Assembly (NCBI GenBank): GCA_050258155.1 | Contig: JBLMYG010000057.1 | Span: 1 to 37,370, forward strand | Direction: 5' to 3' | Source of the DNA: Acidithiobacillales bacterium | Lineage (GTDB): Bacteria > Acidobacteriota > Thermoanaerobaculia > UBA5066 | DNA: 37,370 nucleotides | In this document: positions 748 to 15,289 of the stretch, one piece after another | How positions within the stretch are numbered: position 1 is the stretch's first letter | Layout: each line of letters begins with the position of its first letter | Translations under genes and position numbers: made by a program | Notes under the pieces: model-generated | Told to the model about the DNA's origin: nothing | Seen by the model: only the letters and a program-made list of their open reading frames with translations | Databases searched by the model: none

Positions 748-1707
748 ATGCATTTCCCGGCCTCAGGTGTCGACGTCTCGCCGTTCATCCCTCCTCTGGT
801 CGCCTTCGCCATATCGCTCTTCACGTCGACCGGCGGCGTCTCGGGAGCCTTCCTGATCCTTCCTTTCCAGATGAGCGTCCTCCACTTCACCTCACCGGCC
901 GTCAGCGCCACCAACCAGCTCTACAACATCGTGGCGATCCCCTCGGGCGTCTGGCGGTACGTCCGGGAAGGGCGGATGGTCTGGCCGCTCACGTGGGTCG
1001 TGATCGCCGGAACGCTGCCAGGAGTCCTGATCGGCGCCATCTTCCGCGTCCGCTACCTTCCCGACCCGGCGCGGTTCAAGCTCTTCGCCGGAGTCGTTCT
1101 CCTCTACATCGGGGGACGTCTCCTCAGGGATCTCCTTTCGAAGCGAAAAGGCGCCCTGGACGCCACGGCGGCGGAGGAGCGTTTCCAGGCCCTGGTCCGG
1201 CGGTACCGCGAGGCGGGCGGAAACGGTCCCGGCCGCGCCGGCCAGGCCATGCCCCGCGTAGCGGTCAAGAGATTCACCCCGTCTCGGATCGCGTACGAGT
1301 TCTACGGCGAGGTCTTCGACTTCTCGACGCCGGGTATCTTCGCCCTCAGCTTCGTCGTCGGCGTCGTGGGGGGCGTCTACGGGATCGGCGGGGGGGCCAT
1401 CATCGCGCCGTTCTTCGTGGCGTTCTTCGGCCTGCCGGTTTACACGGTAGCCGGGGCGGCACTCATGGGCACCCTCATCACCTCGGTCGCAGGGGTCCTC
1501 TTCTATCAGGCGATCGCGCCGTTCTACCCCGGGCTGGCGGTCGCGCCCGACTACCCTCTCGGCCTCCTGTTCGGCATCGGCGGCATGGCGGGGATGTACC
1601 TTGGGGCTCGCCTCCAGAAGCACCTCCCGGCGAAGGCCATCAAGGGGATGCTCGCGGCCGTCATCCTCTTCATGGCGGTCCGGTACATCGCGGAGTTCCT
1701 CCGATGA
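748..1707 (+). CDS. TSUP (TauE/SafE, DUF81) family sulfite/sulfur-oxyanion transporter
   Basis: Multi-TM 319 aa protein with two repeated halves: STGGVSGAFLILP and GGVYGIGGGAIIAPF motifs. Confidence 0.85.
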   Translation: MHFPASGVDVSPFIPPLVAFAISLFTSTGGVSGAFLILPFQMSVLHFTSPAVSATNQLYNIVAIPSGVWRYVREGRMVWPLTWVVIAGTLPGVLIGAIFRVRYLPDPARFKLFAGVVLLYIGGRLLRDLLSKRKGALDATAAEERFQALVRRYREAGGNGPGRAGQAMPRVAVKRFTPSRIAYEFYGEVFDFSTPGIFALSFVVGVVGGVYGIGGGAIIAPFFVAFFGLPVYTVAGAALMGTLITSVAGVLFYQAIAPFYPGLAVAPDYPLGLLFGIGGMAGMYLGARLQKHLPAKAIKGMLAAVILFMAVRYIAEFLR

Positions 1708-1723
1708 CGAAAACGCGCCAACT

Positions 1724-4192
1724 TCAGGTGAAGGCGGCGTAGTCGCCCCGGAGGAAGTGCTCCGTGAAGTGGCGCATGTTCGTTTCATCCTGCATCAGCA
1801 TGTCGAGCTGCCGGGCGCAGCCCATCAGGGAGCCGAGCGTGGACAGAGCCTCCTCAGAGGGCCCGCGCGGATAGCGCCGCAGCCAGGCCGTGACGAGATC
1901 CCCCCGCCGGTCCACGCCGAAGCCGGACCTCAGGAGGACCTCGGAAAGGAACCGGGCCCTCAGATCGCGCCGCTCCTCCCCCGCGCCGCCGCCCCGGAAG
2001 CGGAAGTTCACGAAGTTGTTCTCGGGGACGGGCGAGATGAAGGCATCCACCATCGCGAAGTGGTAGGCGAGCCGGGCGTTGAGGTTGACATAGTCGGGGG
2101 CGACCATCAGGTAGTTCCGACCGCCCACCTCTCGCACGCCGGAGCGCGAATCGCCGATCGACGAGCCGAGGACCGACATGAAGCCCCCCAGGCTGATCTG
2201 GGTTCGCCCGGCCCAGCTCACCCCCGGCCGGGTCATGCCGCGCCAGAGCGCCTGGAAGGGACGTGACGCGATCTCCTCCGGCCGGACTCTTCGCTGTTCG
2301 AGGGCCGGCGCCGGAAGGGTCCCGCCGAGGTCGAGGACCGCGAGCGGAAGCGGCACGTCGCTCTCCAGCCGGCAGACCTGCCGCTGGCCCTCCCGGCCCA
2401 CCTCGTCGCCGAGCTCGAACATGGCCGCCACGGCCTTCTCGTGGGTGAAGCGGACGATGTCGTGGACGGAGCGGCAGGCCCGCGCGCGAAAGTTGAAGGC
2501 CTGTGGGTTCGTCAGGTTGAGCGCGAGCACGCGCTCGTGCAGCGGGCTGGCGAGGCGTCGGGCGGGAAGATGCCGGATGCGGCTCCGGACCCGCTCGATC
2601 ACGTCCGGCCAGAGTCTCCCCTCGAAGACGAGCCGCCGCGTCGCGTCGAGGCTCAGGGACGGGCGCCCGCCCAGACGCTCCTCCGCTTCCTCGACGCCGA
2701 AAAGCGTCGGAACGCCGAACTCGCGGACGAGGGCCGCGGCGTGTCCTGCAGGGTTTCCCTGCTCGGCCACCACGCCGGCCAGGCGCGGCAGGACGGCCGC
2801 AAGCTCCGGCCCGGCCTGACGCACCACGAGAACGGCACCCTCCGGCGCTGCGAGGACCTCCTCCATGGAACGCGCCCGATGCACGGGGCCGACGGCCCGG
2901 CCCGGGAATATCGTGACGCCTCCGGTCGCCAGAGGCGCCGCGCCATCTCCCGCCGCCACCCCCTCCGCTCCGACGTCCACCGTCCGGAGTGGCCGGCACT
3001 GGACGATCCGGAGGGCATCCTCCCGGGTCAGGACCCACTCGATGTCGAGCGGGCCTCCTCGGAAGGCCTCCAGCTTCAGGCCGACCTCCACGAGAGCTTT
3101 CACGTCGCTGCCGGAGAGGGGCGCGCCGGCGGCCCGGGGCTCCGCCGCCCCGGACTGAGCCGATGTCTCGATCTCGCCGGGGCGGCTCCGCCGGGCGAGG
3201 AGGGTCCATGCCGCCGTTTCGCCGCGCACCATGGCGTCAGCGAGCCCGGCTACGGCGTCGATGAGCATCCGGTCCGCGGTCTCGTTGCGCGGGTCGCGTG
3301 TGTAGAGCACGCCGGCCGCGCGCGCCTCCAGCATCGGCATCACGAGGACGGCCATCGGCGTCTCGGCTTCCGTGAACCCTCCCACCAGGCGGTAGAGGAC
3401 GGCGTGATCGCCGAAACGGCTGGCCAGGACGATCCGGTACGCAGGCGCGAGAGCCTCGGGCGGGACGCCGAGAACGGTCTCGAACTGCCCGGCGAAGCTC
3501 ATCAGGCCGTCTTCGCCGACGGCGCTGGAGCGGACGGCGAGGCGCTCCGGCGGGCCCTCCCCGAACAGGCGAACCCCGAGAGCGAGGGCCTCGAGCACGC
3601 GGCCCGGCACCGGGCTTCCCTCGATCAGCGCCCGGATCTCCCGCGTCCGCTCCTGAAAGAGCCGCCGCCCCGTGATCAGGCTCAGGTCCCTGAAGAGCTT
3701 TCGGATCGGCTCGTTGAGGCGGTTCTCGGAGAGGAAAAGACGGTACGCAGCCGTCGTGACGACGAATCCGGGAGGGACGGCGCCCGGAAACACCGCGAGG
3801 AGTGGCCCGAGTCCGGCCGCCTTTCCCCCGACCTCCCGGATTCTGGCCGGCCCGGCCTCGGCGAGCGGCAGGGTGAGCGGCAACGCCGAAGGCGCGGGAA
3901 ACGAGCGGAGCGTGGAGCGCACGGCCCCTTCGATCTCTGCGTGGGCGGCGTAGAGAGAGCGGTGGGAGGCCCCGGTCAGAAGGTTCAGGTTCTCGGCGAG
4001 GAGGAGCGATCCGTCCAGGAGACGGAGCACCGGATGGACGACGACAGGCTCTCCCGGGTCGTAGTGGGCCAGGTCCGCCTCGAGGTCGGCCATCTGCTCG
4101 AGCATCTCGCTGTTCGCCGCGAGCAGGCGCCGGAGGATCCGGTACCGGTGCCTGAGGGGATCGTCTGGGGGCGGAAGCGCGCTTTCAGGCAC
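1724..4192 (-). CDS. PEP-synthase/PPDK-like phosphotransferase: ATP-grasp + phospho-His swivel domain + uncharacterised C-terminal domain
   Basis: Motifs GGKAAGL, PPGFVVTT, AVRSSAVGED..SFAGQFET, DIEW, VQCRP and GNPAGHAAALVREFGVP (His codon 2741-2743). No PEP/pyruvate TIM-barrel motifs. Start placed at GTG 4192, overlapping the upstream stop. Confidence 0.8.
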   Translation of the reverse strand: MPESALPPPDDPLRHRYRILRRLLAANSEMLEQMADLEADLAHYDPGEPVVVHPVLRLLDGSLLLAENLNLLTGASHRSLYAAHAEIEGAVRSTLRSFPAPSALPLTLPLAEAGPARIREVGGKAAGLGPLLAVFPGAVPPGFVVTTAAYRLFLSENRLNEPIRKLFRDLSLITGRRLFQERTREIRALIEGSPVPGRVLEALALGVRLFGEGPPERLAVRSSAVGEDGLMSFAGQFETVLGVPPEALAPAYRIVLASRFGDHAVLYRLVGGFTEAETPMAVLVMPMLEARAAGVLYTRDPRNETADRMLIDAVAGLADAMVRGETAAWTLLARRSRPGEIETSAQSGAAEPRAAGAPLSGSDVKALVEVGLKLEAFRGGPLDIEWVLTREDALRIVQCRPLRTVDVGAEGVAAGDGAAPLATGGVTIFPGRAVGPVHRARSMEEVLAAPEGAVLVVRQAGPELAAVLPRLAGVVAEQGNPAGHAAALVREFGVPTLFGVEEAEERLGGRPSLSLDATRRLVFEGRLWPDVIERVRSRIRHLPARRLASPLHERVLALNLTNPQAFNFRARACRSVHDIVRFTHEKAVAAMFELGDEVGREGQRQVCRLESDVPLPLAVLDLGGTLPAPALEQRRVRPEEIASRPFQALWRGMTRPGVSWAGRTQISLGGFMSVLGSSIGDSRSGVREVGGRNYLMVAPDYVNLNARLAYHFAMVDAFISPVPENNFVNFRFRGGGAGEERRDLRARFLSEVLLRSGFGVDRRGDLVTAWLRRYPRGPSEEALSTLGSLMGCARQLDMLMQDETNMRHFTEHFLRGDYAAFT

Positions 4193-4580
4193 GCTCGTCT
4201 CTTTCCTCGCGGAGGGAGGCGGCTGCATGCTGGACGACCTCGCGCAGGCGGTCGGTCCGGAGAGGCTTCGAGAGGACCTCGAAGGCGCCGAGCGCCATCG
4301 CCTCGGCCGCCACCTCCGGCGACGGGTAGCCGGTGATCAAGATGACCTTCGAGGCGCGCGATTTGGCGCGCACCCGCTTCAGGAGGGTCATGCCGTCGAT
4401 CCCTTTCATCCTGATGTCGCTCACGACGATGTCGAAGCCGGCCTCGAGGAAGCGGGCGAGCGCGAGAGCGGAGTCTTCGAACGTCTCCACCTCGAAGCCG
4501 AGCTTCTCGAGAACGGGTTTGAGCCTCCTGCCGACGATCGGCTCGTCGTCCACGATCAGGGCGCGGAGGGGCCCGCTCAT
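4185..4580 (-). CDS. Stand-alone response regulator receiver
   Basis: VDDEPIV, SDIRM (phospho-Asp), ITGY, SKP; 131 aa with no output domain. Confidence 0.92.
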   Translation of the reverse strand: MSGPLRALIVDDEPIVGRRLKPVLEKLGFEVETFEDSALALARFLEAGFDIVVSDIRMKGIDGMTLLKRVRAKSRASKVILITGYPSPEVAAEAMALGAFEVLSKPLRTDRLREVVQHAAASLREERDERA

Positions 4581-6115
4581 CAGCCGGTCCCGCGGAATGC
4601 GTCCGCATCAGGACCGGTGGCAGGGCGTCCTCCACCGGTGAGGTCGGGCCCGGCGAGGCGGGCGCGAAGCCGGCCCACGGCGCGGACCCGGTCCTCTATC
4701 TCCGGCCCCGGCAGGCCGCGGAGCCACCCGGTCACGTCACGCCCCGTCCGCGACACGACGAATCCGAGGGGCTCCAGGAGACGGGCGGCGAGCTCTCCAC
4801 GCGCCCCCTCGGGGTCACCCTCGCCGCGCGGCGAGAAGCGGCAATAGACGCTGTTGCCTTCCGCTGCGTCGGAGGCCGTGGCATCGAGCAGGTCGAAGCC
4901 GTCCAGGAGGGGCATCGCGGCGAGGGCGTGCTCCTCGGTGGCGACGGCCTCGACGGCGCAGGGCGGCTGCTGGAAGGCCTCGCCCCCCTGGCCTTCCGGG
5001 CTCGTCAGCCCCTGGAGAAGAGCGCCGAGGGGACGCGATGAGGGCTCCTCCGGCTGCATTCCTCCCCGCGAGCCGTGACCTTGCGAGCGCCCGAGGTGGA
5101 CGACGTGAACGCTGCACGAGGGCGCCCCGGCGAGACGGAGACCGGTCCCCGCATCGCCGCATCGGCTCGTGAGGAGCGCGGCCATCGCATCGCCCGCGAA
5201 GCTCTGGGCGAGGTGGACGAGATCGTGGAAGGTCCGGCAGTCGCCGATGGCCGGCAGGGCGCGGTCTGCAGGAAGGGTGAGGGAAAAGGCGGCCTGCCGC
5301 ACGGACCGGAGCAGGGCGTACTCGGGCTCTTCGCCCGAAGCGGCGCGCGTCGAGACGTCGTAGTCCAGAAGCTCGCCGATGCGCCCCTCGTAGACCACGG
5401 TCTCGTCGGCGTCGACCGTCACCTCTCTCCCGTCGCGCAGAAACCGGGTCGCGTCGCCGAGCCCCACGATGGCAGGGATGCGCAGCTCCCGCGCCCGGCG
5501 CGCGGCCGGAGCCGCCACCCCTCCCCGGTCGAGGAGAAGAGCCGCGGCCCGCCCCATGGCTTCCAGCGCGCCGTGCCCGGACGGCAGATCCCCCGCCACC
5601 AGCACACACCCCGCTTGAAGGGGCTCCCGGAGCGGTCCGTCTCCGAGATTGCGAACGACGCCGGCGGCGACGCCCCGGCAGGCCACCTGACCCCGTTCGC
5701 GGCAGACGACCCGCGAGCGCGACAGGGCGGCCGCGAGCCTCGCGGGGCTGACCGCAGGTGAGACCTCTCCCCCCGGCCTCGCCTGCGATCCCGCGCCTTT
5801 CTCGACGAGAAGGCTCCGGAGCTCGGCCCGAAGCTGCTCGGCCCGTTCGTAGATCGCCAGATTCCGCTGCGAGGCGAGAACGTTGAGGTCGAAGGACATC
5901 CCGTCGGCGATCTCCGCCACCTGCTCCGCAAGGGAGACGATGTACTGCCGGTCCAGTATGAAGCTGCCTCCCTGCTTCTCCGCCGCGTCCTCAAGAAGCG
6001 CGAGGAAAGCGCCATAGCTTCGAAGGAGTTGACGGAAGCGCGTTGCGCGGAGCTTGAGGAGAAGGAGATCCTCTCTCCCACCCGCCGGCCGAAGGATACG
6101 GCCCAGCCACGACAT
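4580..6115 (-). CDS. Degenerate paralog of the PEP-synthase-like protein (no ATP-grasp domain; swivel-domain His replaced by Pro)
   Basis: Swivel-domain signatures GVAAGVV...GGVAAPAARRARELRIPAIVG...EVTVDA. The N- and C-terminal blocks align by eye with 1724-4192 (CRTFHDLVHL vs CRSVHDIVRF). GGAGG RBS. Confidence 0.72.
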   Translation of the reverse strand: MSWLGRILRPAGGREDLLLLKLRATRFRQLLRSYGAFLALLEDAAEKQGGSFILDRQYIVSLAEQVAEIADGMSFDLNVLASQRNLAIYERAEQLRAELRSLLVEKGAGSQARPGGEVSPAVSPARLAAALSRSRVVCRERGQVACRGVAAGVVRNLGDGPLREPLQAGCVLVAGDLPSGHGALEAMGRAAALLLDRGGVAAPAARRARELRIPAIVGLGDATRFLRDGREVTVDADETVVYEGRIGELLDYDVSTRAASGEEPEYALLRSVRQAAFSLTLPADRALPAIGDCRTFHDLVHLAQSFAGDAMAALLTSRCGDAGTGLRLAGAPSCSVHVVHLGRSQGHGSRGGMQPEEPSSRPLGALLQGLTSPEGQGGEAFQQPPCAVEAVATEEHALAAMPLLDGFDLLDATASDAAEGNSVYCRFSPRGEGDPEGARGELAARLLEPLGFVVSRTGRDVTGWLRGLPGPEIEDRVRAVGRLRARLAGPDLTGGGRPATGPDADAFRGTG

Positions 6116-6207
6116 CGGTCAGCCTCCCCGGCGCAAAGAGACGCGCGGTGCTCCGATCAGGACGCTCGATCGTAGCTCACGGATCACGGGACCTCCGCGA
6201 GGGAGGC

Positions 6208-6225
6208 CGTTACGCAGGGGTGACA
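6208..6225. promoter_or_regulatory. Putative activator (UAS) site CGTTAC-N6-GTGACA; weaker second copy at 6238-6255
   Basis: cgttac gcaggg gtgaca; the motif recurs in four intergenic regions; centre 105 bp upstream of the -24 GG at 6321-6322. Confidence 0.65.
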
Positions 6226-6319
6226 AGTTCCTCCGGGCGTTACGGCTCCGCAAGGCCGGTCTGCCTTGGTCTGCCCGTCGCGTTATTCCTTCTGAAGGTT
6301 TTCCGCTCCTCGAGGCATC

Positions 6320-6335
6320 TGGCAGCGACCTTGCT
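6320..6335 (+). promoter_or_regulatory. Sigma-54 (-24/-12) promoter of the cmk-like/DUF202/HK/REC operon
   Basis: TGGCAGCGACCTTGCT: GG-N10-GC spacing with TTGCT, ending 27 bp before ATG 6363. Confidence 0.75.
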
Positions 6336-6362
6336 GCCCTCTCCGCCGGGTCTGGGGGCCGC

Positions 6363-7175
6363 ATGCCGGTTGTTCTCATCTCTCGCGGCACCATGTCGGG
6401 CGGCGAGGCGCTGGCTCACTGCCTCGCGGAGCGCCTGTCGCTGCGATATGTGCGCCGCGAGGACCTGATCGAGGTCGTCGATGCGCAGGGCGAGTACGCG
6501 AAGAAGGTCCGGGCGAGCCTCGACCGGGCCACCCGAGCCTACGACCAGTTCGGCCAGCTCCGCCGCCCCTATCTCGTCCTGATGCGACGCGCCCTGCTCG
6601 GCTTCATCCGGGAGGATAAGGTCGTCTACGCCGGCTACGCGAGCCACCTCCTCGTGCCGAATCTCCCGTGCTGCCTGAGGGTCCGGATCAACGCCCCGAT
6701 GGCCCTGAGAGTCCGGTACGCGATCAGCCGGCTCGGCCTGCCGGAGAGCGAGGCACGGGAACACATTCTTCGGGAGGACGAGCAGCGGGTCCGCTGGGGC
6801 CGCTTCATGTACGGGCACGACATCAGGGACCCCGACCTCTACGACGTCTGCTTCTTCCTCGACAGGATGTCGATCGACACGATCTGCAGCATGGTCATGG
6901 CCGGCCTCGCCGAGAAGGACTTCCAGAGAGGGCCGGAGGCCGGGAAGGCGCTGGAGGAGCTCTTCCTCTCGGCGAGCGTCGAGGCGGCGCTCGTGAGCGA
7001 CCGCCGGACGCATGCCTGGGAGATCGGAGCACGGGCCCGCGACCGAAGCGTTCTTCTCGAAGGCCCCTTCCTCGAGGAGCGCCAGCTCTCCGACGTTCTC
7101 GAGGTCGCCCGGGGCGTCAGCGGCGTCGAGGCCGTCGAGTACCAACCAGGATGCGTGTCGAGTTTCGACGGATGA
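6363..7175 (+). CDS. Cytidylate-kinase-like family protein with C-terminal BON-like domain
   Basis: MPVVLISRGTMSGGEALAHCLAERL, LRVRINAP...R, ED..R..W...YG.D..DP..YD; the C-terminal ~70 aa is BON-like. Start moved from 6054 to ATG 6363. Confidence 0.78.
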   Translation: MPVVLISRGTMSGGEALAHCLAERLSLRYVRREDLIEVVDAQGEYAKKVRASLDRATRAYDQFGQLRRPYLVLMRRALLGFIREDKVVYAGYASHLLVPNLPCCLRVRINAPMALRVRYAISRLGLPESEAREHILREDEQRVRWGRFMYGHDIRDPDLYDVCFFLDRMSIDTICSMVMAGLAEKDFQRGPEAGKALEELFLSASVEAALVSDRRTHAWEIGARARDRSVLLEGPFLEERQLSDVLEVARGVSGVEAVEYQPGCVSSFDG

Positions 7176-7206
7176 CGGAGCGCCAGCGAAGGCCGGGAGA
7201 CCACCC

Positions 7207-8094
7207 ATGCCGATGACGACAGACACCAGTGGCCACGCATTCACCGAGACGGTCGAGGAGTTTCTCTCCCGCGCTGCCGAGGCCGAGGAATCGCTCGTCC
7301 GGCTCGCAGCCGCCCGAAACGAGCTTCTCCGGGTCTCGAGCGAGACCGGCGTGAAGCTCCTCGGCTTCACGTCGAGCACGACGGGTCTCACGGAACGCCA
7401 GACATCGATGGCCCAGGAGAGGACCGCCCTGACCCGCGAGCAGACGCGCCTCTCCACCCGGAGCACCGAGCTCGCGGGCATCCGCACCGACCTCGGCCGC
7501 GAGCGGACGAGCCTCGCGGGCCAGCGGACGGACCTGGCGGTCGCGCGGACCGAGATGGCGCGCCGCCGCACCTCGCTGGCCGAGGGGCGGACGGGCCTGG
7601 CGCAGTCCCGGACGGGGCTCGCCGAAGAGCGGACGGGGCTCGCCCGGCAGCGGACGGGGATGGCGCACGAGCGGACGGCGCTCTCCTCCACGCGCACCGA
7701 CCTCGCCCGGGACCGGAACCGCCTCGCCGAAGAGCGGACCGGCTACTCCGTGCGGCGAACGGACCTCGCGGCCGAGCGGAACGTGCTCGCCACGGTCCGC
7801 ACGGACCGGGCGGCGTCGCGTACGCGGCTCTCGACTCAGAGGACCGAGATGGCCCGGGAAAGGACGTACCTCGCCCTTCTCAGGACCGGTCTCGCGCTGC
7901 TGACCTTCGGCATCGTCCTCTTCCGCTACTTCGGGGTCTCGTGGTGGAGCCTCTTCGACGCGGCGCTCGTCTTCGTCGCACTGGTCCTCCTCTCTGTGGG
8001 GGTGACGGGCTACCTCAAGAGCCACCGCAAGGTCGTGGAACTCGGGGATCGTCTCCGGTCCGACAAGGGCCTGAGCGATCTGGAGGCGGGCTGA
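7207..8094 (+). CDS. DUF202/YidH-like membrane protein with a long N-terminal heptad-repeat helix
   Basis: C-terminal MARERTYLALLRTGLALLTFG plus two TM helices is the DUF202 signature; GGGAGA RBS before ATG 7207. Confidence 0.75.
   Translation: MPMTTDTSGHAFTETVEEFLSRAAEAEESLVRLAAARNELLRVSSETGVKLLGFTSSTTGLTERQTSMAQERTALTREQTRLSTRSTELAGIRTDLGRERTSLAGQRTDLAVARTEMARRRTSLAEGRTGLAQSRTGLAEERTGLARQRTGMAHERTALSSTRTDLARDRNRLAEERTGYSVRRTDLAAERNVLATVRTDRAASRTRLSTQRTEMARERTYLALLRTGLALLTFGIVLFRYFGVSWWSLFDAALVFVALVLLSVGVTGYLKSHRKVVELGDRLRSDKGLSDLEAG
7378..7902 (+). repeat. 25 in-frame 21-bp/7-aa tandem repeats, consensus R-T-x-L-A-x-x
   Basis: TTGLTER QTSMAQE RTALTRE ... RTGLAQS RTGLAEE RTGLARQ ... RTYLALL RTGLALL with no register break; near-identical DNA units cggacggggctcgcc in the middle. 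Confidence 0.9.
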
Positions 8095-8108
8095 GCCGCG
8101 ACGACGTG

Positions 8109-9674
8109 ATGGCGAGCATCGCCTCCGCGGGCGAGATGATCCCGGCCGGGGGCGGGCCGGGTCCGGACCGTCTGGGGGCCCGGCTCGCGGGCCAGCTCCG
8201 CGACGCGCAGCACGCCCTCCTCTCCCGTCCCCGCTTCAGCATCCGGATGCGGCTCGTCACGCGGCTCGCGCTCTGCCTCGGACTCTGCTGCGCCTTCTCG
8301 ATCGCAGTCATGAGCATGCTCGGCCGGGTCCGGGACCGGCTCGGGCTGCTGGGGGCGACCGAAGAGCTGAGCGCGAGCATCCTCCGGGCGCGGGCTCTGG
8401 AGAGCGAGGGGGCCCTCACCGTGGCCCAGAGCCGCCAGGTGCTCCACGACGTGAGCGCAGCCACCGCGCTCTTCCGGCAGGCCGCCCGCACCGTCCCGGC
8501 CGCCGAAGCTCCGCGCTTCCGGACGCTTCTGGGCCGCCTCGAGACCTATCAGGGGCTCCTCGAGGCCAATCAGGCTCTGGCAGAGCGAAGCGGCCCGGGG
8601 ACGGGTCTGATCCCGTCCCGGGGAGCCATCGCCCGGGAGAAGGAGCTGGAGGTCGCCCGGCTCCTCGACGTCGTCGTCGCCGACGAGCGCGCCTCGGCGA
8701 TGCGAACGCTCGCGCTCGCCGAGTCCGCCCCTCTCCTCCTGATCGGCCTCCTCGTGGCCCTCTTCGGGGCCATCATCTACTCCACCACCCGTGCGCTCGA
8801 CGGTCCGATCCGGAGGTTCAAGGGCTACACCAGCCGGATCGCGGCCGGCGACTTCTCGCTCATCTCCCCGGCGCGAACGTACCGGGACGAGTTCACGGAC
8901 CTCGCCCTGGCCGTCAACGAGATGATGGCCGAGCTCCGGGCGCACCTCGATCGGGGCGTGAAGGCGGCCAAGCTGGCGGCGGTGGGAACCCTCACGTCCG
9001 GCATCGCCCACGAGCTGAACAACCCCCTGAACAACATCGCCATCACGACCGAGGCGCTCATGGAGGACCTGCCCCGGCTCGGCGATGACGAGAAATGGCG
9101 CCTTCTCGAGGACATCTACTTCGAGACGGAGCGGGCCGGCGAGATCGTCAAGAGCCTCCTCGACTTCACACGGCAGGAGAAGCCAGAGATGGTCCCCCTC
9201 GACCTCGTGGAGGTCATCCAGTCGACGGTCCGCCTCGCCCAGAACGAGATGGCGCTTTCCAACGTTTCCTTCACCTCCGAGCTTCCGGCCGGCCTTCCCC
9301 GCGTCCGGGGAGCGGCCAATCAGCTGCGGCAGGTCCTGCTCAACCTCCTCCTCAACGCCATCCAGGCGATGCCCGGAGGGGGCCGGCTTCACGTCAGCGC
9401 CGGGCATCGAGAGGAGGGAAGGGTCTGCGTCGAGGTGCGGGACGACGGGATCGGCATCCCGCCCGAGACGATGCCCCACATCTTCGATCCCTTCTTCACG
9501 ACCAAGGAGCCCGGCAAGGGGACGGGCCTCGGCCTCTCCGTCAGCCTCGGCATCGTCAGGAAATTCGGGGGCGACATCCAGGTGACGAGCGAGCCCCACA
9601 AGGGGACCGTGGTCCACGTTTGTCTGCCCGAGGCCGGGAGGGATAATCCCGCCCCGAGCGGCGAGGGGGAGTGA
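8109..9674 (+). CDS. Membrane sensor histidine kinase (TM-sensor-TM-HAMP-HisKA-HATPase)
   Basis: AHELNNPLNNI H-box, QVLLNLLLNA, DDGIGI, FDPFFTTK, GTGLGL. Start uncertain (8109 or 8136). Confidence 0.9.
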   Translation: MASIASAGEMIPAGGGPGPDRLGARLAGQLRDAQHALLSRPRFSIRMRLVTRLALCLGLCCAFSIAVMSMLGRVRDRLGLLGATEELSASILRARALESEGALTVAQSRQVLHDVSAATALFRQAARTVPAAEAPRFRTLLGRLETYQGLLEANQALAERSGPGTGLIPSRGAIAREKELEVARLLDVVVADERASAMRTLALAESAPLLLIGLLVALFGAIIYSTTRALDGPIRRFKGYTSRIAAGDFSLISPARTYRDEFTDLALAVNEMMAELRAHLDRGVKAAKLAAVGTLTSGIAHELNNPLNNIAITTEALMEDLPRLGDDEKWRLLEDIYFETERAGEIVKSLLDFTRQEKPEMVPLDLVEVIQSTVRLAQNEMALSNVSFTSELPAGLPRVRGAANQLRQVLLNLLLNAIQAMPGGGRLHVSAGHREEGRVCVEVRDDGIGIPPETMPHIFDPFFTTKEPGKGTGLGLSVSLGIVRKFGGDIQVTSEPHKGTVVHVCLPEAGRDNPAPSGEGE

Positions 9675-10045
9675 TGCCAGAGAGCAGGGATGTCATGGTC
9701 CTGGACGACGAGCCCATCGTCGGAGACCGCCTCCGGCCGGCTCTCGAGAAGGACGGCTTCAAGGTGGAGGTCTTCACCGACTCGACCGCCGCCCTCGAGA
9801 GGCTCAAGGAAAAGAGCTTCTCCGTGCTGGTGACGGACGTGAAGATGCGGGGGCCGAGCGGGATGGACGTCCTCCGGTTCGTCAAGGAGCACGCTCCCGA
9901 GACGCAGGTCATCGTGATCACCGGCTACGCCACCATCGAGACGAGCCACGAGGCCGACGCTCTCGGCGCCGTTCACTTCATCCCGAAGCCGTTCCGGATG
10001 AAGGACCTCGTCAAGCTGGTCTCGAAGTCGTCACGGCGGACGTAG
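9671..10045 (+). CDS. Stand-alone response regulator receiver
   Basis: LDDEPIV, TDVKM, ITGY, IPKP; overlaps the kinase stop codon. Confidence 0.92.
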   Translation: MMPESRDVMVLDDEPIVGDRLRPALEKDGFKVEVFTDSTAALERLKEKSFSVLVTDVKMRGPSGMDVLRFVKEHAPETQVIVITGYATIETSHEADALGAVHFIPKPFRMKDLVKLVSKSSRRT

Positions 10046-11573
10046 CGGGGAGCGGCTCGTCCCCCGGCAGCCCCGGAATCATCGCTGCCGGAAGGAGAAC
10101 GGTCACCTCCGTCCCCCTCCCCGGCTCGCTCCGGACCCGGATGTCGCCTCCGTGCTGGCGGACGATGCCGAGGCTCACGGAGAGGCCGAGGCCCGTTCCC
10201 TTTCCCCGCGGCTTGGTCGTGAAGAACGGATCGAAGATGTATGGCAGGGCATGGGCCGGGATCCCCGGCCCGTCGTCCGTCACCGTCACCTCGACCCAGC
10301 CCGGCTCGTGCCGGCTCCCGGTGGTGATCCGGACCCGCCCCCCTTTTCCCACGGCGTCGAGGGCATTGAGCAGCAGGTTGACGAAGACCTGGATCAGTGA
10401 CTGCCGGTCGCCGTGGATCGCAGGAAGGTTGGGAACCACGTCGAGCGTGATCCGGGCTCCCGACAGGCGGATCTGGTTCGCCGCGAGACCGGTGGCCCCC
10501 CGCAGCACCTCCGCGAGGTCGAGCTTCTCGGTCTTGATCTCTCCCTCCCGGGCGAAGTCCAGGAGGTTGCGGACGATCCGCTGCGCCCGCGCGGCCTGCT
10601 CGACGAGGTCATGGACCATCTCCAGCCGCTCCCCGTCGCCGAGCGCCGCGTAGTCTTCCTTGAGCATCTCGGCCGTGAGCGTGATGTTGTTGATCGGGTT
10701 GTTCAGCTCGTGGGCCACGCCGGACGTCAGCGTCCCGATGGCGGAGAGCTTGTGCGACTGGACGAGCACATCCTGCCGGTGGGCCAGCTCGCGCATCATC
10801 GTGTTGAGGGCGAGGGCGAAGTTGGAGAACTCGTCGCGGTACCACCGCCGCGGGGTGAGGGGCGTGAAGTCGCCGCTGGCGATCCTGTGCGTGGCGGCTC
10901 CGAGACGGGAGAGAGGCCCGACGATCTGGCGAGCGAGAAAGTTGGCCACGAAGACCGAGAAGACGAGGAGGAAGGCGAGGAAGGCCACCGGGAGCCGCTT
11001 GAAGAGTTCGAGGGTGGCGTTGACGCTGCTCCGCTCTTTGTCGGCCAGCTCGAGGGCGAAGGAGACCATCTGTGAGCCGTGGTCCCTCAGCTCCGTTTCG
11101 ATGGCCGCCTTCTCGTCCGGGACCTCGGAAACCTGTCCCGCCTGAATGACGAGGAGGCGGGCGATCAGCGACTCGTAGCGGTCCAGATGGGCCCGCATTC
11201 GCGTCAGCTCGCTTCGGGTCAGGACCCTTTCGGCGTCCGGGCCCGCGGCCTCCAGGAGGCGCCGGGCGTCCTTCAGGTGGTCCTGCACGTCCGAGAGTCC
11301 GGTGCCGTAAAGGAAGTAGTTCTTCTCGTACCGCCGTGTCTGCTGGATCTCCATCGTGTAGCGGTCGGCGGCCTCCAGAAAGCGGAGACGTCTCTCGAGA
11401 CGGCCGAGCAGGATCCAGGCCCCGATCGTCACGGCGACCGCGAAGACGACGAAGGAGAGGAAGCTGAGGATCAGCCGGGCCCGGATCCCGAAGCTCGGCC
11501 GGCCGAGGAACGCCTGCTCGACGCTCGACGTGTCGCGGGCCGTCGCGGCGTCCTGCCCTTTCTCCTCCTGCAC
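10011..11573 (-). CDS. Membrane sensor histidine kinase, paralog of 8109-9674
   Basis: AHELNNPINNI, QVFVNLLLNA, DDGPGI, FDPFFTTK, GTGLGL; HAMP YRDEF block shared with the paralog. Confidence 0.92.
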   Translation of the reverse strand: MQEEKGQDAATARDTSSVEQAFLGRPSFGIRARLILSFLSFVVFAVAVTIGAWILLGRLERRLRFLEAADRYTMEIQQTRRYEKNYFLYGTGLSDVQDHLKDARRLLEAAGPDAERVLTRSELTRMRAHLDRYESLIARLLVIQAGQVSEVPDEKAAIETELRDHGSQMVSFALELADKERSSVNATLELFKRLPVAFLAFLLVFSVFVANFLARQIVGPLSRLGAATHRIASGDFTPLTPRRWYRDEFSNFALALNTMMRELAHRQDVLVQSHKLSAIGTLTSGVAHELNNPINNITLTAEMLKEDYAALGDGERLEMVHDLVEQAARAQRIVRNLLDFAREGEIKTEKLDLAEVLRGATGLAANQIRLSGARITLDVVPNLPAIHGDRQSLIQVFVNLLLNALDAVGKGGRVRITTGSRHEPGWVEVTVTDDGPGIPAHALPYIFDPFFTTKPRGKGTGLGLSVSLGIVRQHGGDIRVRSEPGRGTEVTVLLPAAMIPGLPGDEPLPATSAVTTSRPA

Positions 11574-11582
11574 GAGGCCCCT

Positions 11583-11996
11583 CTACGGGGATTCGGTCAC
11601 GACCGCCCCGGCGACGCCGGCGAAGCCGAGGGCCTCGGCCGCCCTGGAGATGACGTCACGAAGCTCCTGCGGTTTGAACGGCTTGGCGATGAAGTCGAAG
11701 GCCCCCTTGGCCATCGCCTCGCGCGCCACCTCGACCGTCGCGTAGCCGGTGATCATGATGACCCGGGTCTCCGGCCAGCGCGCCAGGACCTTCTCGAGGA
11801 CCTCGATCCCGTCGATCTCTTCCATCCGGATGTCGGTCACGACGACGTCGAACCGCTTCGCCGCGATCCGCTCCAGGGCGGGCCGCGGAGCGTCGAACAC
11901 CTCGACGTCGCAGCCGACCTTGGCGAGCGCCGGCTGCAGCCGCTTGCCGACGATCGGCTCGTCGTCCAGGACGAGGACCTGAAGTCGTCTCTCCAT
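11583..11996 (-). CDS. Stand-alone response regulator receiver
   Basis: LDDEPIV, TDIRM, ITGY, AKP; start moved to ATG 11996 (AGGAGG RBS). Confidence 0.92.
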   Translation of the reverse strand: MERRLQVLVLDDEPIVGKRLQPALAKVGCDVEVFDAPRPALERIAAKRFDVVVTDIRMEEIDGIEVLEKVLARWPETRVIMITGYATVEVAREAMAKGAFDFIAKPFKPQELRDVISRAAEALGFAGVAGAVVTESP

Positions 11997-12007
11997 GGCC
12001 GGACCTC

Positions 12008-13096
12008 CTAGCCCTCCACCGGCCGGCGGACGAGGAGGGTCGTGTGGATCCGCTGCCGCTCGATGTGGGCTTTGGCGACTTTGACGAGGATCATCCCGGC
12101 ACCCCCGATGCCGGCGGCGAAAAGCATGACCGTCGAGCCTCCGTTGAGCCACCGGTCCCAGGCCGGATCGAAGGCGACCCAGCCGAGCTGCCGGAGGTAG
12201 ACGGGGACGGCGATCGCGCGGGAAATGACACAGAGAAGGATGATGAAACCCGTCGAGAGCCGGATGACCCTCTCGCTCAGGACCTTCACGCCGTAGACGC
12301 CGATGTAGACACCGACGAGGGAGCCCAGGAAGAGGAGGCAGGTCATCCTCAGGTCGACGTACCCCTCGAAGGCGTAGTTGAGCGCGCCGAACGCGCCCAT
12401 GAAGATCGCGAGGTAGAGCTCCGTTCCAGCCGCCACGGCGGTCGGGATGCCGAAGATGTAGATCATCGCCGGCACGCCGACGAATCCCCCCACGCCGATG
12501 GTCCCGGCCAGGTACCCGGTGGCGAGGCCGACCGGGAGGAGGACCCAGAGCGAGAGCTCCACGTCCGAGACCGGGAACTTGATGATCGGCTTCAGGTTGA
12601 GGCGGGCGAGGAAGTCCGTGATGGCGCGGGAGGGCCCCTGCCCCTCGGAGGCCGGCCGCAGGGCGTCACGGAGCATCGAGATCGCGACGAACGTCAGGAC
12701 GCAGATGAAGATCGCGCTGATGTACAAATCCGACCCGGCGCTCCTGGCGGTGCCGTGGCTCCCGCCCTCTGCGAACAGCAGGCTGTTGATCCAGACAGCC
12801 AGCCGGATTCCGATCAGGGCGGTGACGAGCAGGTACATGGCGAGCCGTTTGTCCACGTTCCCCATCTGGGCATGCTTCCGCGCCCCGACGAGAGCCTTGC
12901 CGAACTTGTGGGTGATGTTGCTCCCGACCGCGACGACGCCCGAGACGCCGAGGTTCATCATCCCCGGCGTCATGAAGAAGGCTCCCCCGCTGCCGATGAA
13001 GCCGGACAGAACGCCGCCGATGAAGCCGAGAAGGACGACCAGGATCGCGGTCGTCCACGTGATCGGCACGAAGACATCGCCGAAGATCGGAGGCAT
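12008..13096 (-). CDS. TSUP (TauE/SafE) family transporter
   Basis: SGFIGSGGAFFMTP and AGTIGVGGFVGVP repeats; multiple TM helices; 362 aa. Confidence 0.88.
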   Translation of the reverse strand: MPPIFGDVFVPITWTTAILVVLLGFIGGVLSGFIGSGGAFFMTPGMMNLGVSGVVAVGSNITHKFGKALVGARKHAQMGNVDKRLAMYLLVTALIGIRLAVWINSLLFAEGGSHGTARSAGSDLYISAIFICVLTFVAISMLRDALRPASEGQGPSRAITDFLARLNLKPIIKFPVSDVELSLWVLLPVGLATGYLAGTIGVGGFVGVPAMIYIFGIPTAVAAGTELYLAIFMGAFGALNYAFEGYVDLRMTCLLFLGSLVGVYIGVYGVKVLSERVIRLSTGFIILLCVISRAIAVPVYLRQLGWVAFDPAWDRWLNGGSTVMLFAAGIGGAGMILVKVAKAHIERQRIHTTLLVRRPVEG

Positions 13097-13101
13097 CTCA
13101 T

Positions 13102-14601
13102 CTACTCCAGCCGGATGAGCCTCAGGAGCGTCGAGGCGACGAGACCATACAACCCGGCGACGAGCGGCGCGATCAGGGCGACGAGAACGGGCGCCACCCA
13201 GGGCCGCGCCTTGTGGGAGGGGCCGCCGAGCAGGTCGAGGAGCGGTCCCTGATTCCGGAAGACGAGCACGTAGACGACGACCACCACGAGGAGCGCGGCC
13301 GCGACCTTGGCGATCTGGCCGGCGCCGAAGCGCAGCTTCGCGGAAAGCTCGCCGGTCCCGATGACCGGCGACCTCAGTTTGCCGGCAAGGAAGTTGGCGA
13401 GATCGCGCCCCATGCGTGTCCTGGCCGCGGCCGGCTTGTCGAGGAAGACATCGCCGAGGACCACGAGGCTGTAGCTGATGTCGGGATGCACGGCTGCGAG
13501 AAGCCGGTCGGGGCCTCCGGCGACGGTCTGGCCGCCGCCGGAGCGTCCGTCGTGGACGAGCCGCTCCAGCGTCTCGCGGAAGGCGCGCTCGGCCGGTGAG
13601 ACCTTCTCGACGACGTCCTCCTCCACACCGCCGTCGGCGGGCGTCACGCGAAGCCCGGTGGCCGGCCGGGCGAGGGGCGCCTCGCCGCCCCCCTCAGGGC
13701 GGTAGCGGATCAGCTCTACGGCCGCTCCCCACCGTCGGGCCAGCTCGTTGATCTGGGTCAGCGTCCCGGAGTCGGGGCGAAATTCCTCCTGGATCCAGAG
13801 GATGTTCGTGCTGGCGACCGTGCAACGGACCTCCCGACAGCCGGGCAGTCCCTCGAGAACCCCGGGGATCAGCGGCGCGAGGGAAGCCTGCCGGGGCATG
13901 TACGTGATCGTCACCACACCCTCGCTCGACCGCACCGTCAGATCGGCCTCGGCCGTCCGCTCGTCGAGGGCGAGCCGGATCCGGGCGCGGGCCTGGAGCA
14001 GAAGCTCCTCCATCGCCCGTCGGCTCGCCGGCGTCGGCTTGAAGTCCGGGAGGTCGACGATGCCGCAGAGCGCGGTGGCTGCGTTCTCGAGGCTCACATT
14101 CTCGAGGTTGACGACGAAGTCGTATTTCCTGAGGTCGTCCATGTCGGCGCCGTGGACGAAGTGGACCCAGGCCCGGATGTCGTCGTCGATCTCGGAGAGA
14201 AAGACCTCCGCCTTCTCCCGCGAGAGCTTCGTCCGCGAAACGACCGCGTCGAGGCGCTGACCGTGCTCCGGGATCACCCGGACGCGGAGGACGTGCGACA
14301 CGCCCGGAAGAAGGAAATGGCCGGCCCGCCCGTAGTAGACGAGATCCCCCTGGGCCGCCTTCTCGCAGATCGTGTCCGTGGCCACCGCGAGGTACCGCTG
14401 CTTGAGCCGGGCGAGTCGCTCCCGCACCGCCGGCTTCTTGACCATCGCCACCTCGAGCTTGCCGACGGGGATGCCGCATTCGTTGGCCTTCGCCACGACG
14501 TCCTCGCGGCTCAGGTAGGCGTAGCCGAGCTTCGCGGCGAGGCTCTGGGCCAGCCGCTCTCCCCCCCCGAATGGGACGCTACAGATGAAGACGATCGGCA
14601 T
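13102..14601 (-). CDS. Cytidylate-kinase-like + BON-like protein with extra domain and two C-terminal TM helices
   Basis: MPIVFICSVPFGGGERLAQSLAAKLGY, VYYGRAGHFLL, LRVRVI, YDFVVN; hydrophobic C-terminus. Confidence 0.75.
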   Translation of the reverse strand: MPIVFICSVPFGGGERLAQSLAAKLGYAYLSREDVVAKANECGIPVGKLEVAMVKKPAVRERLARLKQRYLAVATDTICEKAAQGDLVYYGRAGHFLLPGVSHVLRVRVIPEHGQRLDAVVSRTKLSREKAEVFLSEIDDDIRAWVHFVHGADMDDLRKYDFVVNLENVSLENAATALCGIVDLPDFKPTPASRRAMEELLLQARARIRLALDERTAEADLTVRSSEGVVTITYMPRQASLAPLIPGVLEGLPGCREVRCTVASTNILWIQEEFRPDSGTLTQINELARRWGAAVELIRYRPEGGGEAPLARPATGLRVTPADGGVEEDVVEKVSPAERAFRETLERLVHDGRSGGGQTVAGGPDRLLAAVHPDISYSLVVLGDVFLDKPAAARTRMGRDLANFLAGKLRSPVIGTGELSAKLRFGAGQIAKVAAALLVVVVVYVLVFRNQGPLLDLLGGPSHKARPWVAPVLVALIAPLVAGLYGLVASTLLRLIRLE

Positions 14602-14664
14602 CGGTGTCCCGTCCGTTCGGTGTCGCGGCCCGAGCGAAGCGCAGCGGATGCGCGGAGGTCCGGC

Positions 14665-15060
14665 TCACACGGGTGCGACGACCAGCTCGTCGAGGGTGCG
14701 GAGAAGCACCACGGGATCGATGGGCTTGTCGAGGAAAGCCTCGGCTTTGAAGCGCTTGGCCCGGTCGAGGAAGGCGTGATAGTCGGACGTCAGCTTCTCC
14801 TGAATCCCGCTGACAATGACGACCGGGAGGCCCGCGAGGGCGGGATCCTTCCGGATGGCGACGAGGGCGGTGAGACCCCCCCGCTCCGGCATCATCAGGT
14901 CGAGAAGCACGGCGTCCGGCCGCTCCTCGGCCAAGAGCCTGAGCGCCTGATCGACCCCGTTAGCGGCGCGGACCCTCCAGCCGTGGTCCGCGAGCAGCGT
15001 GCCGAGGTAGGCGGTGACGTCGGGCTCGTCGTCGATGACAACTACACTTCGCTCTTTCAT
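14665..15060 (-). CDS. Stand-alone receiver (DivK-like clade)
   Basis: IDDEPDV, LDLMMP, PVVIVSG, DKPIDP; start ATG 15060 with GGAGG RBS. Confidence 0.92.
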   Translation of the reverse strand: MKERSVVVIDDEPDVTAYLGTLLADHGWRVRAANGVDQALRLLAEERPDAVLLDLMMPERGGLTALVAIRKDPALAGLPVVIVSGIQEKLTSDYHAFLDRAKRFKAEAFLDKPIDPVVLLRTLDELVVAPV

Positions 15061-15102
15061 GTTGCCTCCGGCAGACCCTTCAGCGGCGCCCAATGCGTGA
15101 AG

Positions 15103-15117
15103 GCAAAGGCGATGCCG
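15103..15117 (-). promoter_or_regulatory. Sigma-54 promoter of the REC/cmk-like/TSUP/REC/HK operon
   Basis: Minus strand CGGCATCGCCTTTGC: GG-N10-GC. Confidence 0.7.
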
Positions 15118-15209
15118 CCCCGATCCTCGGCTCGCCATTCATGGCCCGGCAGAATTTAGGGTTCTCGCCGAGTCCGCGCGCCACCTGTATGCCACCGGGG
15201 ACGTCCGTC

Positions 15210-15227
15210 CGTTACGTTCTGGTGACG
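15210..15227. promoter_or_regulatory. Putative UAS CGTTAC-N6-GTGACG
   Basis: cgttac gttctg gtgacg; centre 103 bp upstream of the -24 GG (15115-15116). Confidence 0.68.
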
Positions 15228-15289
15228 TCCGTGTTCCAACCGGCAGGTCCGGCCGTCCGGCCTTTTCCGACCGGGTCCCCGCTCTGTCC

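Follow-up and report, generated by a model that had tools for sequence, protein, structure and literature searches.

A TauE/SafE permease module with kinase-like and dikinase-like partners shares predicted sigma-54 control sites with dissimilatory sulfur genes in an Acidobacteriota genome

Genes for TauE/SafE-family (TSUP) permeases, kinase-like and dikinase-like proteins and phosphorelay components are clustered at positions 748 to 15060 of contig JBLMYG010000057.1 (assembly GCA_050258155.1), from an uncultured soil organism, an Acidithiobacillales bacterium that GTDB places in the Acidobacteriota (Thermoanaerobaculia, UBA5066). The window, the whole stretch of DNA that was analysed, is the entire 37,370-nucleotide contig, named C57 here; it belongs to a metagenome-assembled genome (MAG) of 3.47 Mb in 473 contigs, 87.5% complete, with a G+C content of about 65–72%. 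C-numbers denote contigs of this MAG, L-numbers loci or stretches of relatives, and G-numbers sampled or related genomes. The gene map was built from a third-position G+C filter together with Pfam and NCBIfam scans. Several first-listed starts of open reading frames (ORFs) are overlong, because a G+C content of ~68% gives many spurious ORFs; the start of REC4 at 15060 was fixed from the position of its promoter. The cluster contains the following genes.

748–1707 (+): TSUP1, TauE/SafE-family permease (PF01925, 127.5 bits; cut-off 32.6)
1724–4228 (−): PPS1, barrel-less phosphoenolpyruvate (PEP)-synthase-like dikinase (PPDK_N and PEP-utilizers domains)
4185–4580 (−): REC1, stand-alone receiver between PPS2 and PPS1 (PF00072, 93.5 bits)
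4580–6115 (−): PPS2, a derivative of PPS1 (PEP-utilizers domain alone)
~6363 (true start) to 7175 (+): CMK1, soluble kinase-like protein with a BON-like domain (PF13189, 91.5 bits)
about 7207–8094 (+): DUF202 membrane protein (PF02656, 35.9 bits; cut-off 23.4)
about 8109–9674 (+): HK1, HAMP histidine kinase (HAMP, HisKA, HATPase_c)
9671–10045 (+): REC2, stand-alone receiver (PF00072, 88.6 bits)
10011–11573 (−): HK2, HAMP histidine kinase (HAMP, HisKA, HATPase_c)
11583–11996 (−): REC3, stand-alone receiver, third gene after CMK2 and TSUP2 (PF00072)
12008–13096 (−): TSUP2, TauE/SafE-family permease (PF01925, 132.9 bits; cut-off 32.6)
13102–14601 (−): CMK2, membrane-anchored kinase-like protein (PF13189, 82.6 bits)
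14665–15060 (−): REC4, stand-alone receiver, first gene of the CMK2 operon (PF00072, 69 bits)

The inventory drawn up in the preliminary description of this DNA (two TSUP permeases, two PPS-like proteins, two PF13189 proteins, two HAMP kinases, a DUF202 protein and four receivers) was recovered in full, and in place, by the Pfam and NCBIfam scans. PPS2 (6115–4580), REC1 (4580–4185) and PPS1 (4228–1724) form an operon convergent with TSUP1. CMK1, the DUF202 gene, HK1 and REC2 form another, divergent from the first, while REC4, CMK2, TSUP2, REC3 and HK2 form an operon convergent on that of CMK1. From the coordinates, neighbouring stops and starts overlap or are separated by 5–31 nt, which bears out the tight coupling already remarked upon. 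The notion that the system is built of paired paralogues holds for HK1 and HK2 (41% identity), REC1–3 (45–53%), CMK1 and CMK2 (27%), and PPS1 and PPS2 (27%); it has to be qualified in that PPS2 is a histidine-less derivative and TSUP1 a distant, non-conserved neighbour.

Farther along the contig lie a Macro-domain protein, two Rrf2 regulators, sat, qmoCBA, two small Cys-rich genes and aprAB. Beyond these come a DsrMK-like pair and dsrAB, and then the first part of a Fer4_20-domain gene, which we take to be dsrL. The window has four copies of the sigma-54 −24/−12 core GGCA-N6-TTGC where 0.65 would be expected; all are intergenic and correctly oriented, and they lie 29 nt ahead of CMK1, 43 nt ahead of REC4, 148 nt ahead of aprB and 119 nt ahead of dsrA. 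A second pattern, GTTAC-N6-GTGAC, is found five times at no more than one mismatch against 0.62 expected, each time 95–215 bp upstream of one of those four promoters.

6321–6334 (+): sigma-54-type element before CMK1, also in L009–L011, L013–L015, L020, L023 and L055
15103–15116 (−): sigma-54-type element before REC4, also in L009, L010 and L012
31020–31033 (−): sigma-54-type element before aprB, a GGCA-N6-TTGC match
34185–34198 (+): sigma-54-type element before dsrA, present in 4/4 relatives in which dsrA was found
6209–6224: upstream site GTTACGCAGGGGTGAC, candidate activator site 97 bp before the CMK1 promoter, at the same spacing in L009–L011 and L013–L015
15211–15226: upstream site GTTACGTTCTGGTGAC, 95 bp before the REC4 promoter, kept in L009, L010 and L012
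31201–31216: upstream site GTTACACCCTCGTGAC, 168 bp before the aprB promoter
33955–33970 (exact) and 34074–34089 (one mismatch): upstream sites 215 and 96 bp before the dsrA promoter

The two-site layout before dsrA, with its spacing, is also seen in relatives L101 and L102; G401 gave no dsrA match. In the whole 3.47 Mb genome the strict form of GTTAC-N6-GTGAC occurs five times, four of them here and the fifth inside an amidase gene, and none of the other 50 sigma-54-like sites of the genome has it 30–350 bp upstream. The stretch dsrC-dsrMKOP-cysG-ptxB carries neither the upstream site nor the sigma-54 pattern, in the relatives or on our own contigs C363 and C62. The promoters, the upstream sites and rpoN (contig C124) are all present in this genome, and the cognate activator is located by synteny in relatives alone. 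A promoter architecture common to two of the operons, dsrA and aprB had been proposed; it is confirmed here and sharpened by the placed −24/−12 elements and upstream sites. Because these are common to all four units and kept in relatives, we predict that the two CMK operons, aprBA and dsrAB form a single regulon.

The literature searched yielded no account of dsrAB or aprBA being controlled by sigma-54. Sigma-54 regulons are listed for 'transmembrane transport' operons of D. vulgaris (Kazakov et al. 2015, PMC4641369). The D. vulgaris enhancer-binding-protein regulons DVU0150-0146 and DVU2957-2964 have a −24/−12 promoter and an activator site ~100–200 bp upstream, as here; unlike in those regulons, the same site also stands before aprB and dsrA in the window, and in relatives the activator lies ~19 kb away. 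Loci of Thermodesulfobacteriota hold few matches to the strict sigma-54 pattern. In a weighted scan, TGGCAC-N5-TTG(T/A/C) precedes a USP-like gene with a score of at least 17 in 26/53 of these loci, the −12 GC often being absent, which is suggestive, no more, of a sigma-54 promoter.

The co-occurrence with dsr that the preliminary description had put forward as a check is found among Acidobacteriota. We drew 401 Acidobacteriota genomes evenly and searched them for the CMK subfamily (E ≤ 1e-20) and DsrB (E ≤ 1e-40). The former is present in 39 and the latter in 45; 37 genomes have both, two have CMK alone (64% and 67% complete), eight have DsrB alone and 354 have neither, a 2×2 table that overstates independence, and with it a Fisher value that is too strong, since the positives are related genomes in 9 families. 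The C-terminal domain of the PPS proteins is found in 29/401 genomes, all of them CMK-positive and 27 DsrB-positive. At least 11 genomes have a CMK match no farther than 21 kb from dsrB on one contig. In the window's own family, the genomes G095, G154 and G246 score 0/3 for each of DsrB, the CMK subfamily and the PPS domain, and the closest orthologues lie in other families. This suggests that the region was inherited or transferred as a block; the absence from its own family would point either to a transferred island or to a mis-binned contig.

Gene order was compared across loci collected with a profile of CMK2 orthologues, namely the best 80 of 171 stretches encoding a relative; represented are Acidobacteriota, Thermodesulfobacteriota and, with a single MAG, Abyssobacteria. 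TSUP2 is the gene immediately after CMK2 in 71/73 evaluable loci and stands at an odd offset in the other two (L030, L050). The next gene, evaluable in 70 loci, encodes a receiver in 63 and a PPS2-like protein in seven, where a receiver and PPS1 then follow. The order PPS2-REC-PPS1 is also present in the Thermodesulfobacteriota loci L033, L035, L057, L059, L060 and L076. An HK2-like kinase belongs to the locus in 22/26 Acidobacteriota and 47/54 others, PPS-type genes in 21/26 and 13/54, and CMK1-type genes in 13/26 and 6/54. HAMP kinases, PPS-like proteins, CMK1 and DUF202 proteins recur within 10 kb in both phyla. The components therefore travel together elsewhere, as had been anticipated. 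The same genome holds further copies, arranged as PPS / CMK-TSUP / PPS-PPS-TSUP-CMK on contig C239 and as Alph_Pro_TM-PPS / CMK+BON on contig C159.

TSUP1 and TSUP2 have about eight hydrophobic segments each, with merely 25% identity between them across 107 aa. The adjacency of TSUP1 and PPS1 is not kept in related loci, and the membership of TSUP1 in the system is uncertain. Among 25 orthologues from two phyla TSUP2 is 58–91% identical; CMK2 reaches 41–48% across loci, and DsrB 55–59% to four Thermodesulfobacteriota genomes. On these identities TSUP2 is at least as conserved as DsrB across two phyla, and by conservation it is the core transporter of the module. The TSUP family is poorly characterised, and Marietou et al. 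(2018, PMC5840216) state that its functions could not be assigned in sulfate reducers. Other carrier candidates, of the SulP (2), DASS (2) and PiT (1) families, are encoded elsewhere in our genome; on their account we reject TSUP2 as the sole sulfate carrier.

The N-terminal domains of CMK1 and CMK2 match PF13189 (Cytidylate_kin2) with 91.5 and 82.6 bits against a cut-off of 28, and the genome has 8 matches to this family. They share this domain with the structural-genomics entries 3hdt and 3fdi; against the Protein Data Bank (PDB), the CMK2-family profile finds 3hdt at E 4.5e-11 and OsmY (8rjx) at E 0.0058. Beyond PF13189, both proteins have candidate BON-like domains fused on. The BON model (PF04972, cut-off 27) gives CMK1 a sub-threshold 16.6 bits and the paralogue on C159 37.6 bits. 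CMK2 also has a middle part that is conserved and, at its C-terminus, two membrane helices (residues 430–448 and 472–490) that form a hairpin. Unlike the PF13189 entries, it lacks a conserved P-loop, the corresponding region varying among 15 orthologues from 'VPFGGGERLA' to 'STSAALRKEV', and its gene is strictly paired with a TSUP permease. The Walker-A P-loop with lysine and the equivalog score that mark a (d)CMP kinase are both missing: CMK1 obtains 22.5 bits with the archaeal CMP-kinase model TIGR02173, whose cut-off is 102.1, and CMK2 has no NCBIfam match. In one relative (L031:44-1270, −), a Cytidylate_kin2-receiver fusion of 408 aa adjoins a SulP/STAS gene (1283–3419, −) that reads as split; this adjacency ties the kinase-like domain to receivers and anion carriers.

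We predicted the complex of CMK2 with TSUP2, each supplied with an alignment, and obtained ipSAE scores of 0.60, 0.60 and 0.58, rated as weak support; none of three controls scored above 0.00. At least 60% of contacts are common to the runs, with a partner pLDDT of 70 or more. The mark for such scores is reached by 116/157 solved complexes and 2/215 mismatches, and scores of 0.60 or lower are those of merely 18/157 solved complexes and of both passing mismatches. Because the gene pairing is strict, we take the prediction as mild support for a contact between CMK2 and TSUP2.

The DUF202 protein, encoded next to CMK1, reads in translation as ~23 heptads xRTxLAx ahead of two C-terminal membrane helices (residues 221–239 and 249–267), and its gene shows a 21-nt period at 7467–7683.

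PPS1 consists of an N-terminal helical bundle, an ATP-grasp domain, a phospho-histidine swivel domain (His496) and a C-terminal domain of about 295 aa. The ATP-grasp nucleotide-binding domain of PpsA is present, with 180 bits for PPDK_N in Pfam; its motifs are conserved, and His496 is invariant in 23/23 PPS1 homologues. These two domains are common to PPS1 and to PpsA, PPDK and rifampin phosphotransferase (RPH) (PDB 2ols, 9dae, 5hv1, 1dik): a profile comparison with PpsA 9dae gives E 4e-105 over positions 104–561, and Foldseek returns 2ols at E 9.8e-19 and 5hv3 at E 2.7e-18. The structure search with whole PPS1, whose AlphaFold2 model has a pLDDT of 81.9, matched the N-terminal parts of PpsA, RPH and PPDK alone. 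The PEP/pyruvate-binding TIM barrel is lacking from the sequences of both PPS1 and PPS2, and the NCBIfam PpsA equivalogs NF005057 (cut-off 598) and TIGR01418 (cut-off 739.75) score PPS1 at 200.7 and 195.1. Nor is PPS1 a rifamycin phosphotransferase by its model (NF041857, 156.6 bits against a cut-off of 999, with residues 121–417 alone matched), and its swivel domain is central, not C-terminal as in that enzyme.

The third domain of PPS1 is alpha/beta, neither the PEP/pyruvate TIM barrel of PpsA nor the rifampin-binding domain of RPH. Its ~297 residues (538–834) have no Pfam match at E ≤ 1; matches of PPS1 to PDB profiles stop near position 575, leaving the domain without a PDB sequence match. 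With the model of this domain (pLDDT 76.3), Foldseek found nothing in the PDB at E ≤ 0.001 (top E 0.056), and VIA-align against 48,161 chains gave a top Z of 6.2 (1tk1, root-mean-square deviation 4.2, 134 aligned) and none at 8 or above. An Atlas search returned unnamed or 'PEP-utilizing enzyme family' clusters and no Pfam families. The modelled fold is thus unassigned by search, from which it does not follow that it is new. The domain is widespread: in one order, to which a Desulfohalobiaceae-titled MAG belongs, 130/151 genomes have it, often in several copies.

PPS2 keeps the N-terminal helices and the C-terminal domain, which aligns to that of PPS1 at E 1e-11, and has no PPDK_N/ATP-grasp domain in Pfam. 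The swivel histidine is replaced in 5/5 PPS2-type proteins (PPS2 and four others). PPS1 differs from PpsA, PPDK and RPH also in having an extra N-terminal helical bundle and in being paired with both a receiver and a paralogue that lacks the histidine.

Both kinases, HK1 and HK2, score above the Pfam cut-offs for HisKA and HATPase_c, and REC1–REC5 above that for Response_reg. The translations show the H-box 'HELNNP' in the kinases and the DD/D/T/K acceptor-site residues in the receivers, REC1 included; by domain content this is a two-component phosphorelay. In HK1, two membrane helices flank a ~135-aa segment outside the membrane. That the receivers have no DNA-binding domain agrees with Pfam, which finds no output domain on any of them. 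REC5 belongs to an adjacent operon.

15290–15700 (−): REC5, fifth stand-alone receiver, just outside the cluster (Pfam)
15708–17159 (−): PAS kinase (Pfam)
17152–18915 (−): DsrK/HmcF-like Fe-S protein (Fer4 and CCG domains) fused to a receiver (HmcF model NF045711, 323.9 bits; cut-off 750)
18926–19612 (−): DsrM-like membrane protein, by reading of its translated C-terminus (DsrM/NarI-like)

The last ORF has no Pfam match. In the DsrK-like fusion the receiver domain occupies residues 462–574, and the same fusion recurs upstream of CMK2 in L012, L062, L073 and L088; the operon 15290–19612 is probably linked to the module. A redox module, the DsrK-like protein, is thereby fused to a phosphorelay. 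In three loci titled Desulfocapsaceae or 'delta proteobacterium' (L062:5957-6901, L073:8327-9322, L088:8220-9146), a receiver-GGDEF diguanylate cyclase stands ahead of CMK2 and replaces the bare receiver or USP-like protein.

A missing sigma-54 activator had been suspected as the output of the relay, and synteny in relatives supplies a candidate. In three close relatives (G402, G403, G404) an activator gene lies 18–19 kb past dsrA, on the same strand and with the same profile coverage; in one relative the syntenic activator is encoded at L105:2957-4342. In G402 it encodes a receiver-type NtrC protein without a neighbouring kinase and comes after dsrL, dsrC, dsrMKOP, an oxidoreductase, cysG and a PtxB-like binding protein. 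In our MAG the dsr cluster runs on in C363 and C62, and C62 breaks off in the PtxB-like gene. The activator ATPase domain is matched 18 times in the genome at E ≤ 2e-35. Identity to the syntenic protein is at best 44–46%, the level of paralogues, and no candidate is named among the matches. The orthologue is probably unassembled in this MAG. Such an orphan receiver-type activator would be a natural sink for the kinases of the window. In two loci of Thermodesulfobacteriota, a HAMP kinase and an NtrC-type activator (REC, sigma-54 AAA, HTH_8) stand directly ahead of the USP-like gene and CMK2, and receiver-containing ORFs of 448–540 aa stand directly ahead of CMK2 in most loci of that phylum. Directly beside the syntenic NtrC-type activator of G404 lies a gene (L107:797-2509, −) for a 571-aa protein that joins a multihaem cytochrome c3/c7 domain to a TauE permease.

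Other features of the window lie among the sulfur genes. A second DsrM-like/DsrK-like pair (31055–33944, +) directly precedes dsrA, besides the dsrMKOP of C363; the true start of the DsrM-like gene is probably later than first listed, because the first-listed ORF overlaps the upstream site at 31201–31216. Two genes between aprA and qmoA (27311–28536, −) encode a CxxCxxCC (PF03692) protein and a 146-aa protein with a weak zinc-finger match. The two Rrf2-family regulators and the Macro-domain protein (20144–21423, −, and 20633–20850) lie between sat and the DsrK-like-receiver operon, and the spacer ahead of the second Rrf2 gene is unusually AT-rich for the genome. In the soil metatranscriptome runs X1 and X2, RNA-library contigs fall on 11500–31400, with mismatch-free pieces on sat, qmo and aprA in X2. 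The summed word depth is 111–523 for aprBA, 22–39 for sat and 0–3.8 for the CMK2 operon, values that can neither rank genes nor prove transcription and that we used neither for nor against co-expression.

The closest precedent is the 'nitrate cluster' of Desulfovibrio, DVU0251-DVU0245 / Dde_0597-0605, which comprises a TauE-like permease, a HAMP/PAS kinase, a stand-alone receiver and a PPDK-like protein. Transposon mutants in its TauE-like permease (DVU0251), a small conserved protein, a PtxB-like protein, the receiver (DVU0247) and the PPDK-like protein (DVU0246) become nitrate resistant (Korte et al. 2014, PMC4001038). The TauE mutant has the strongest phenotype, which is read there as barred entry. 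Since permease, receiver and PPDK-like mutants have one phenotype, these parts work together. The same paper describes G20 mutants as mildly sick on thiosulfate and proposes a leaky thiosulfate transporter; its authors doubt a native role in nitrate handling, and the kinase gene is an annotated pseudogene in D. vulgaris. By description, the window's set of genes fits Table 3 of that paper. The PPDK-like protein is annotated there with ATP-grasp and mobile domains only, as in the barrel-less PPS1, and the Desulfovibrio proteins plausibly belong to the same PPS family. A PtxB-like periplasmic binding protein belongs to the nitrate cluster, and a Phosphonate-bd protein ends the dsr cluster of the present lineage (C62). 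The two differ in that the nitrate cluster, as listed in that paper, includes neither a kinase-like/BON protein nor a DUF202 protein nor a histidine-less PPS2, carries a phosphatase gene with no counterpart here, and comes with no reported promoter link to dsr or apr. In the Dissulfuribacter proteome of 2026 (PMC13490349), an adjacent 'PEP synthase', TauE-associated membrane protein and TauE, likened here by name only, are reported as more abundant under thiosulfate disproportionation. DVU0145-0150, with a response regulator and lipoproteins, is described as syntrophy-induced (PMC4265775), and we leave its likeness to the module as a lead. The gene set is known so far from genetics alone; here we have a variant of it with biochemically unstudied features.

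We favour, at about even confidence, the reading that the locus serves the dissimilatory sulfur pathway as an accessory module, belongs to one sigma-54 regulon with aprBA and dsrAB, and most likely moves a sulfur oxyanion across the membrane with a flux tuned after translation. TSUP2 would be the permease. CMK2 would be a cytoplasmic pseudo-kinase/BON protein held at the membrane by its C-terminal hairpin, acting as a regulatory subunit on TSUP2. HK2, and HK1 in the second operon, would sense an outside signal and phosphorylate the small receivers, which would act on the CMK proteins and the PPS pair and not on DNA. PPS1 would load its swivel histidine from ATP and hand the phosphate to an acceptor bound by its C-terminal domain, and the histidine-less PPS2 would either partner PPS1 or restrain it. 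The activator, an orphan NtrC protein of the receiver type encoded past the contig end, would bind GTTAC-N6-GTGAC and turn on the module together with apr and dsr. The substrate would be a sulfur oxyanion, with thiosulfate or sulfite as likely as sulfate because SulP, DASS and PiT genes are present elsewhere in the genome, and it might be moved in either direction.

A bolder form of the scheme makes PPS1 a phosphodonor for the receivers. His496, loaded from ATP by way of the ATP-grasp domain, would pass its phosphate through the C-terminal domain to the neighbouring stand-alone receiver or to the permease complex, with PPS2 as a built-in antagonist; the phosphorylated receiver and the pseudo-kinase/BON subunit would then open or close the TSUP permease. 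We think this unlikely. If true, sulfur-oxyanion flux would be gated by a dikinase-driven relay beside, and partly independent of, the classical histidine kinases.

Several observations weigh against the favoured reading of an oxyanion-moving module in the sulfur regulon. The modules on C239 and C159 have no upstream site, meaning that some copies of the module lack this tie to dsr and apr. The genome of the Abyssobacteria MAG, whose completeness is not established, holds CMK2-TSUP2-REC3 and has no DsrB match at E ≤ 1e-30. Genes for sat and qmo adjoin the module in 10/26 Acidobacteriota loci and in merely 1/54 others, and the genomes behind the dsrB co-occurrence are akin to each other. With SulP, DASS and PiT candidates present, TSUP2 need not carry sulfate. 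The CMK2-TSUP2 complex score, which is the sole support for gating after translation, lies at the weak end. The sensing and gating system first proposed for this locus therefore stands as regards co-occurrence and common control sites; its mechanism goes beyond the present results.

Among the alternatives, we see a modest chance that the module is mainly a sensor. TSUP2 and its kinase-like partner would then be co-sensors, a 'trigger transporter', with bulk transport left to SulP or DASS; together with the HAMP kinases and receivers they would report anion supply or energy state to the NtrC-type activator of dsr, apr and the module itself. The receivers without output domains, the kinase-less receiver-type activator at the end of the dsr cluster in relatives, the autoregulatory layout given by the same upstream site at the module's own promoters and the other sulfate-carrier families in the genome would all fit. 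The 58–91% identity of TSUP2 across two phyla, at least the conservation of DsrB, fits a working carrier instead, and the module is multiplied in the genome in copies without the upstream site. The Desulfovibrio TauE mutant, with the strongest nitrate resistance and its explanation as barred entry (PMC4001038), likewise speaks for transport. It seems improbable to us that the module handles a non-sulfur anion or stress (nitrate, nitrite, an organosulfonate, a metal oxyanion, or osmotic or pH stress, the last two because of the BON and USP parts) and lies beside dsr and apr as a travelling island. Block transfer would fit the 0/3 counts in the window's own family; nitrate resistance is the sole published phenotype (PMC4001038), one carrier genome lacks a DsrB match, and with 130/151 genomes of one order bearing the PPS C-terminal domain the family is broader than a single pathway. 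Against this, the genome-specific upstream site and the sigma-54 promoters common with aprB and dsrA indicate common control beyond proximity, 354/401 genomes lack both DsrB and CMK while just two incomplete ones have the module and no DsrB, and the Desulfovibrio authors themselves doubt a native nitrate role (PMC4001038).

That the proteins are housekeeping enzymes as labelled, a PEP synthase of gluconeogenesis and a cytidylate kinase of nucleotide salvage, is scarcely credible. The database names 'pyruvate, water dikinase' and 'cytidylate kinase' say so, and the ATP-grasp residues and swivel histidine of PPS1 are conserved; yet PPS1 and PPS2 are without the barrel, with PpsA scores at about a third of the cut-offs, CMK2 is membrane-anchored and has no conserved P-loop, and CMK1 falls far below the CMP-kinase cut-off.

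For the favoured reading, the wider interest is in how sulfur oxyanions cross the membrane of sulfate reducers and related bacteria of the sulfur cycle and how this flux is matched to the respiratory enzymes, which is still open. The locus is a concrete candidate: a conserved permease, a strictly paired membrane-anchored pseudo-kinase, receivers, dikinase-like enzymes with an undescribed domain, and predicted control sites like those of aprBA and dsrAB. Widespread 'PEP synthase' and 'cytidylate kinase' annotations are corrected by it, and it predicts a sigma-54 regulon with a defined motif for the dissimilatory sulfur genes of Acidobacteriota.

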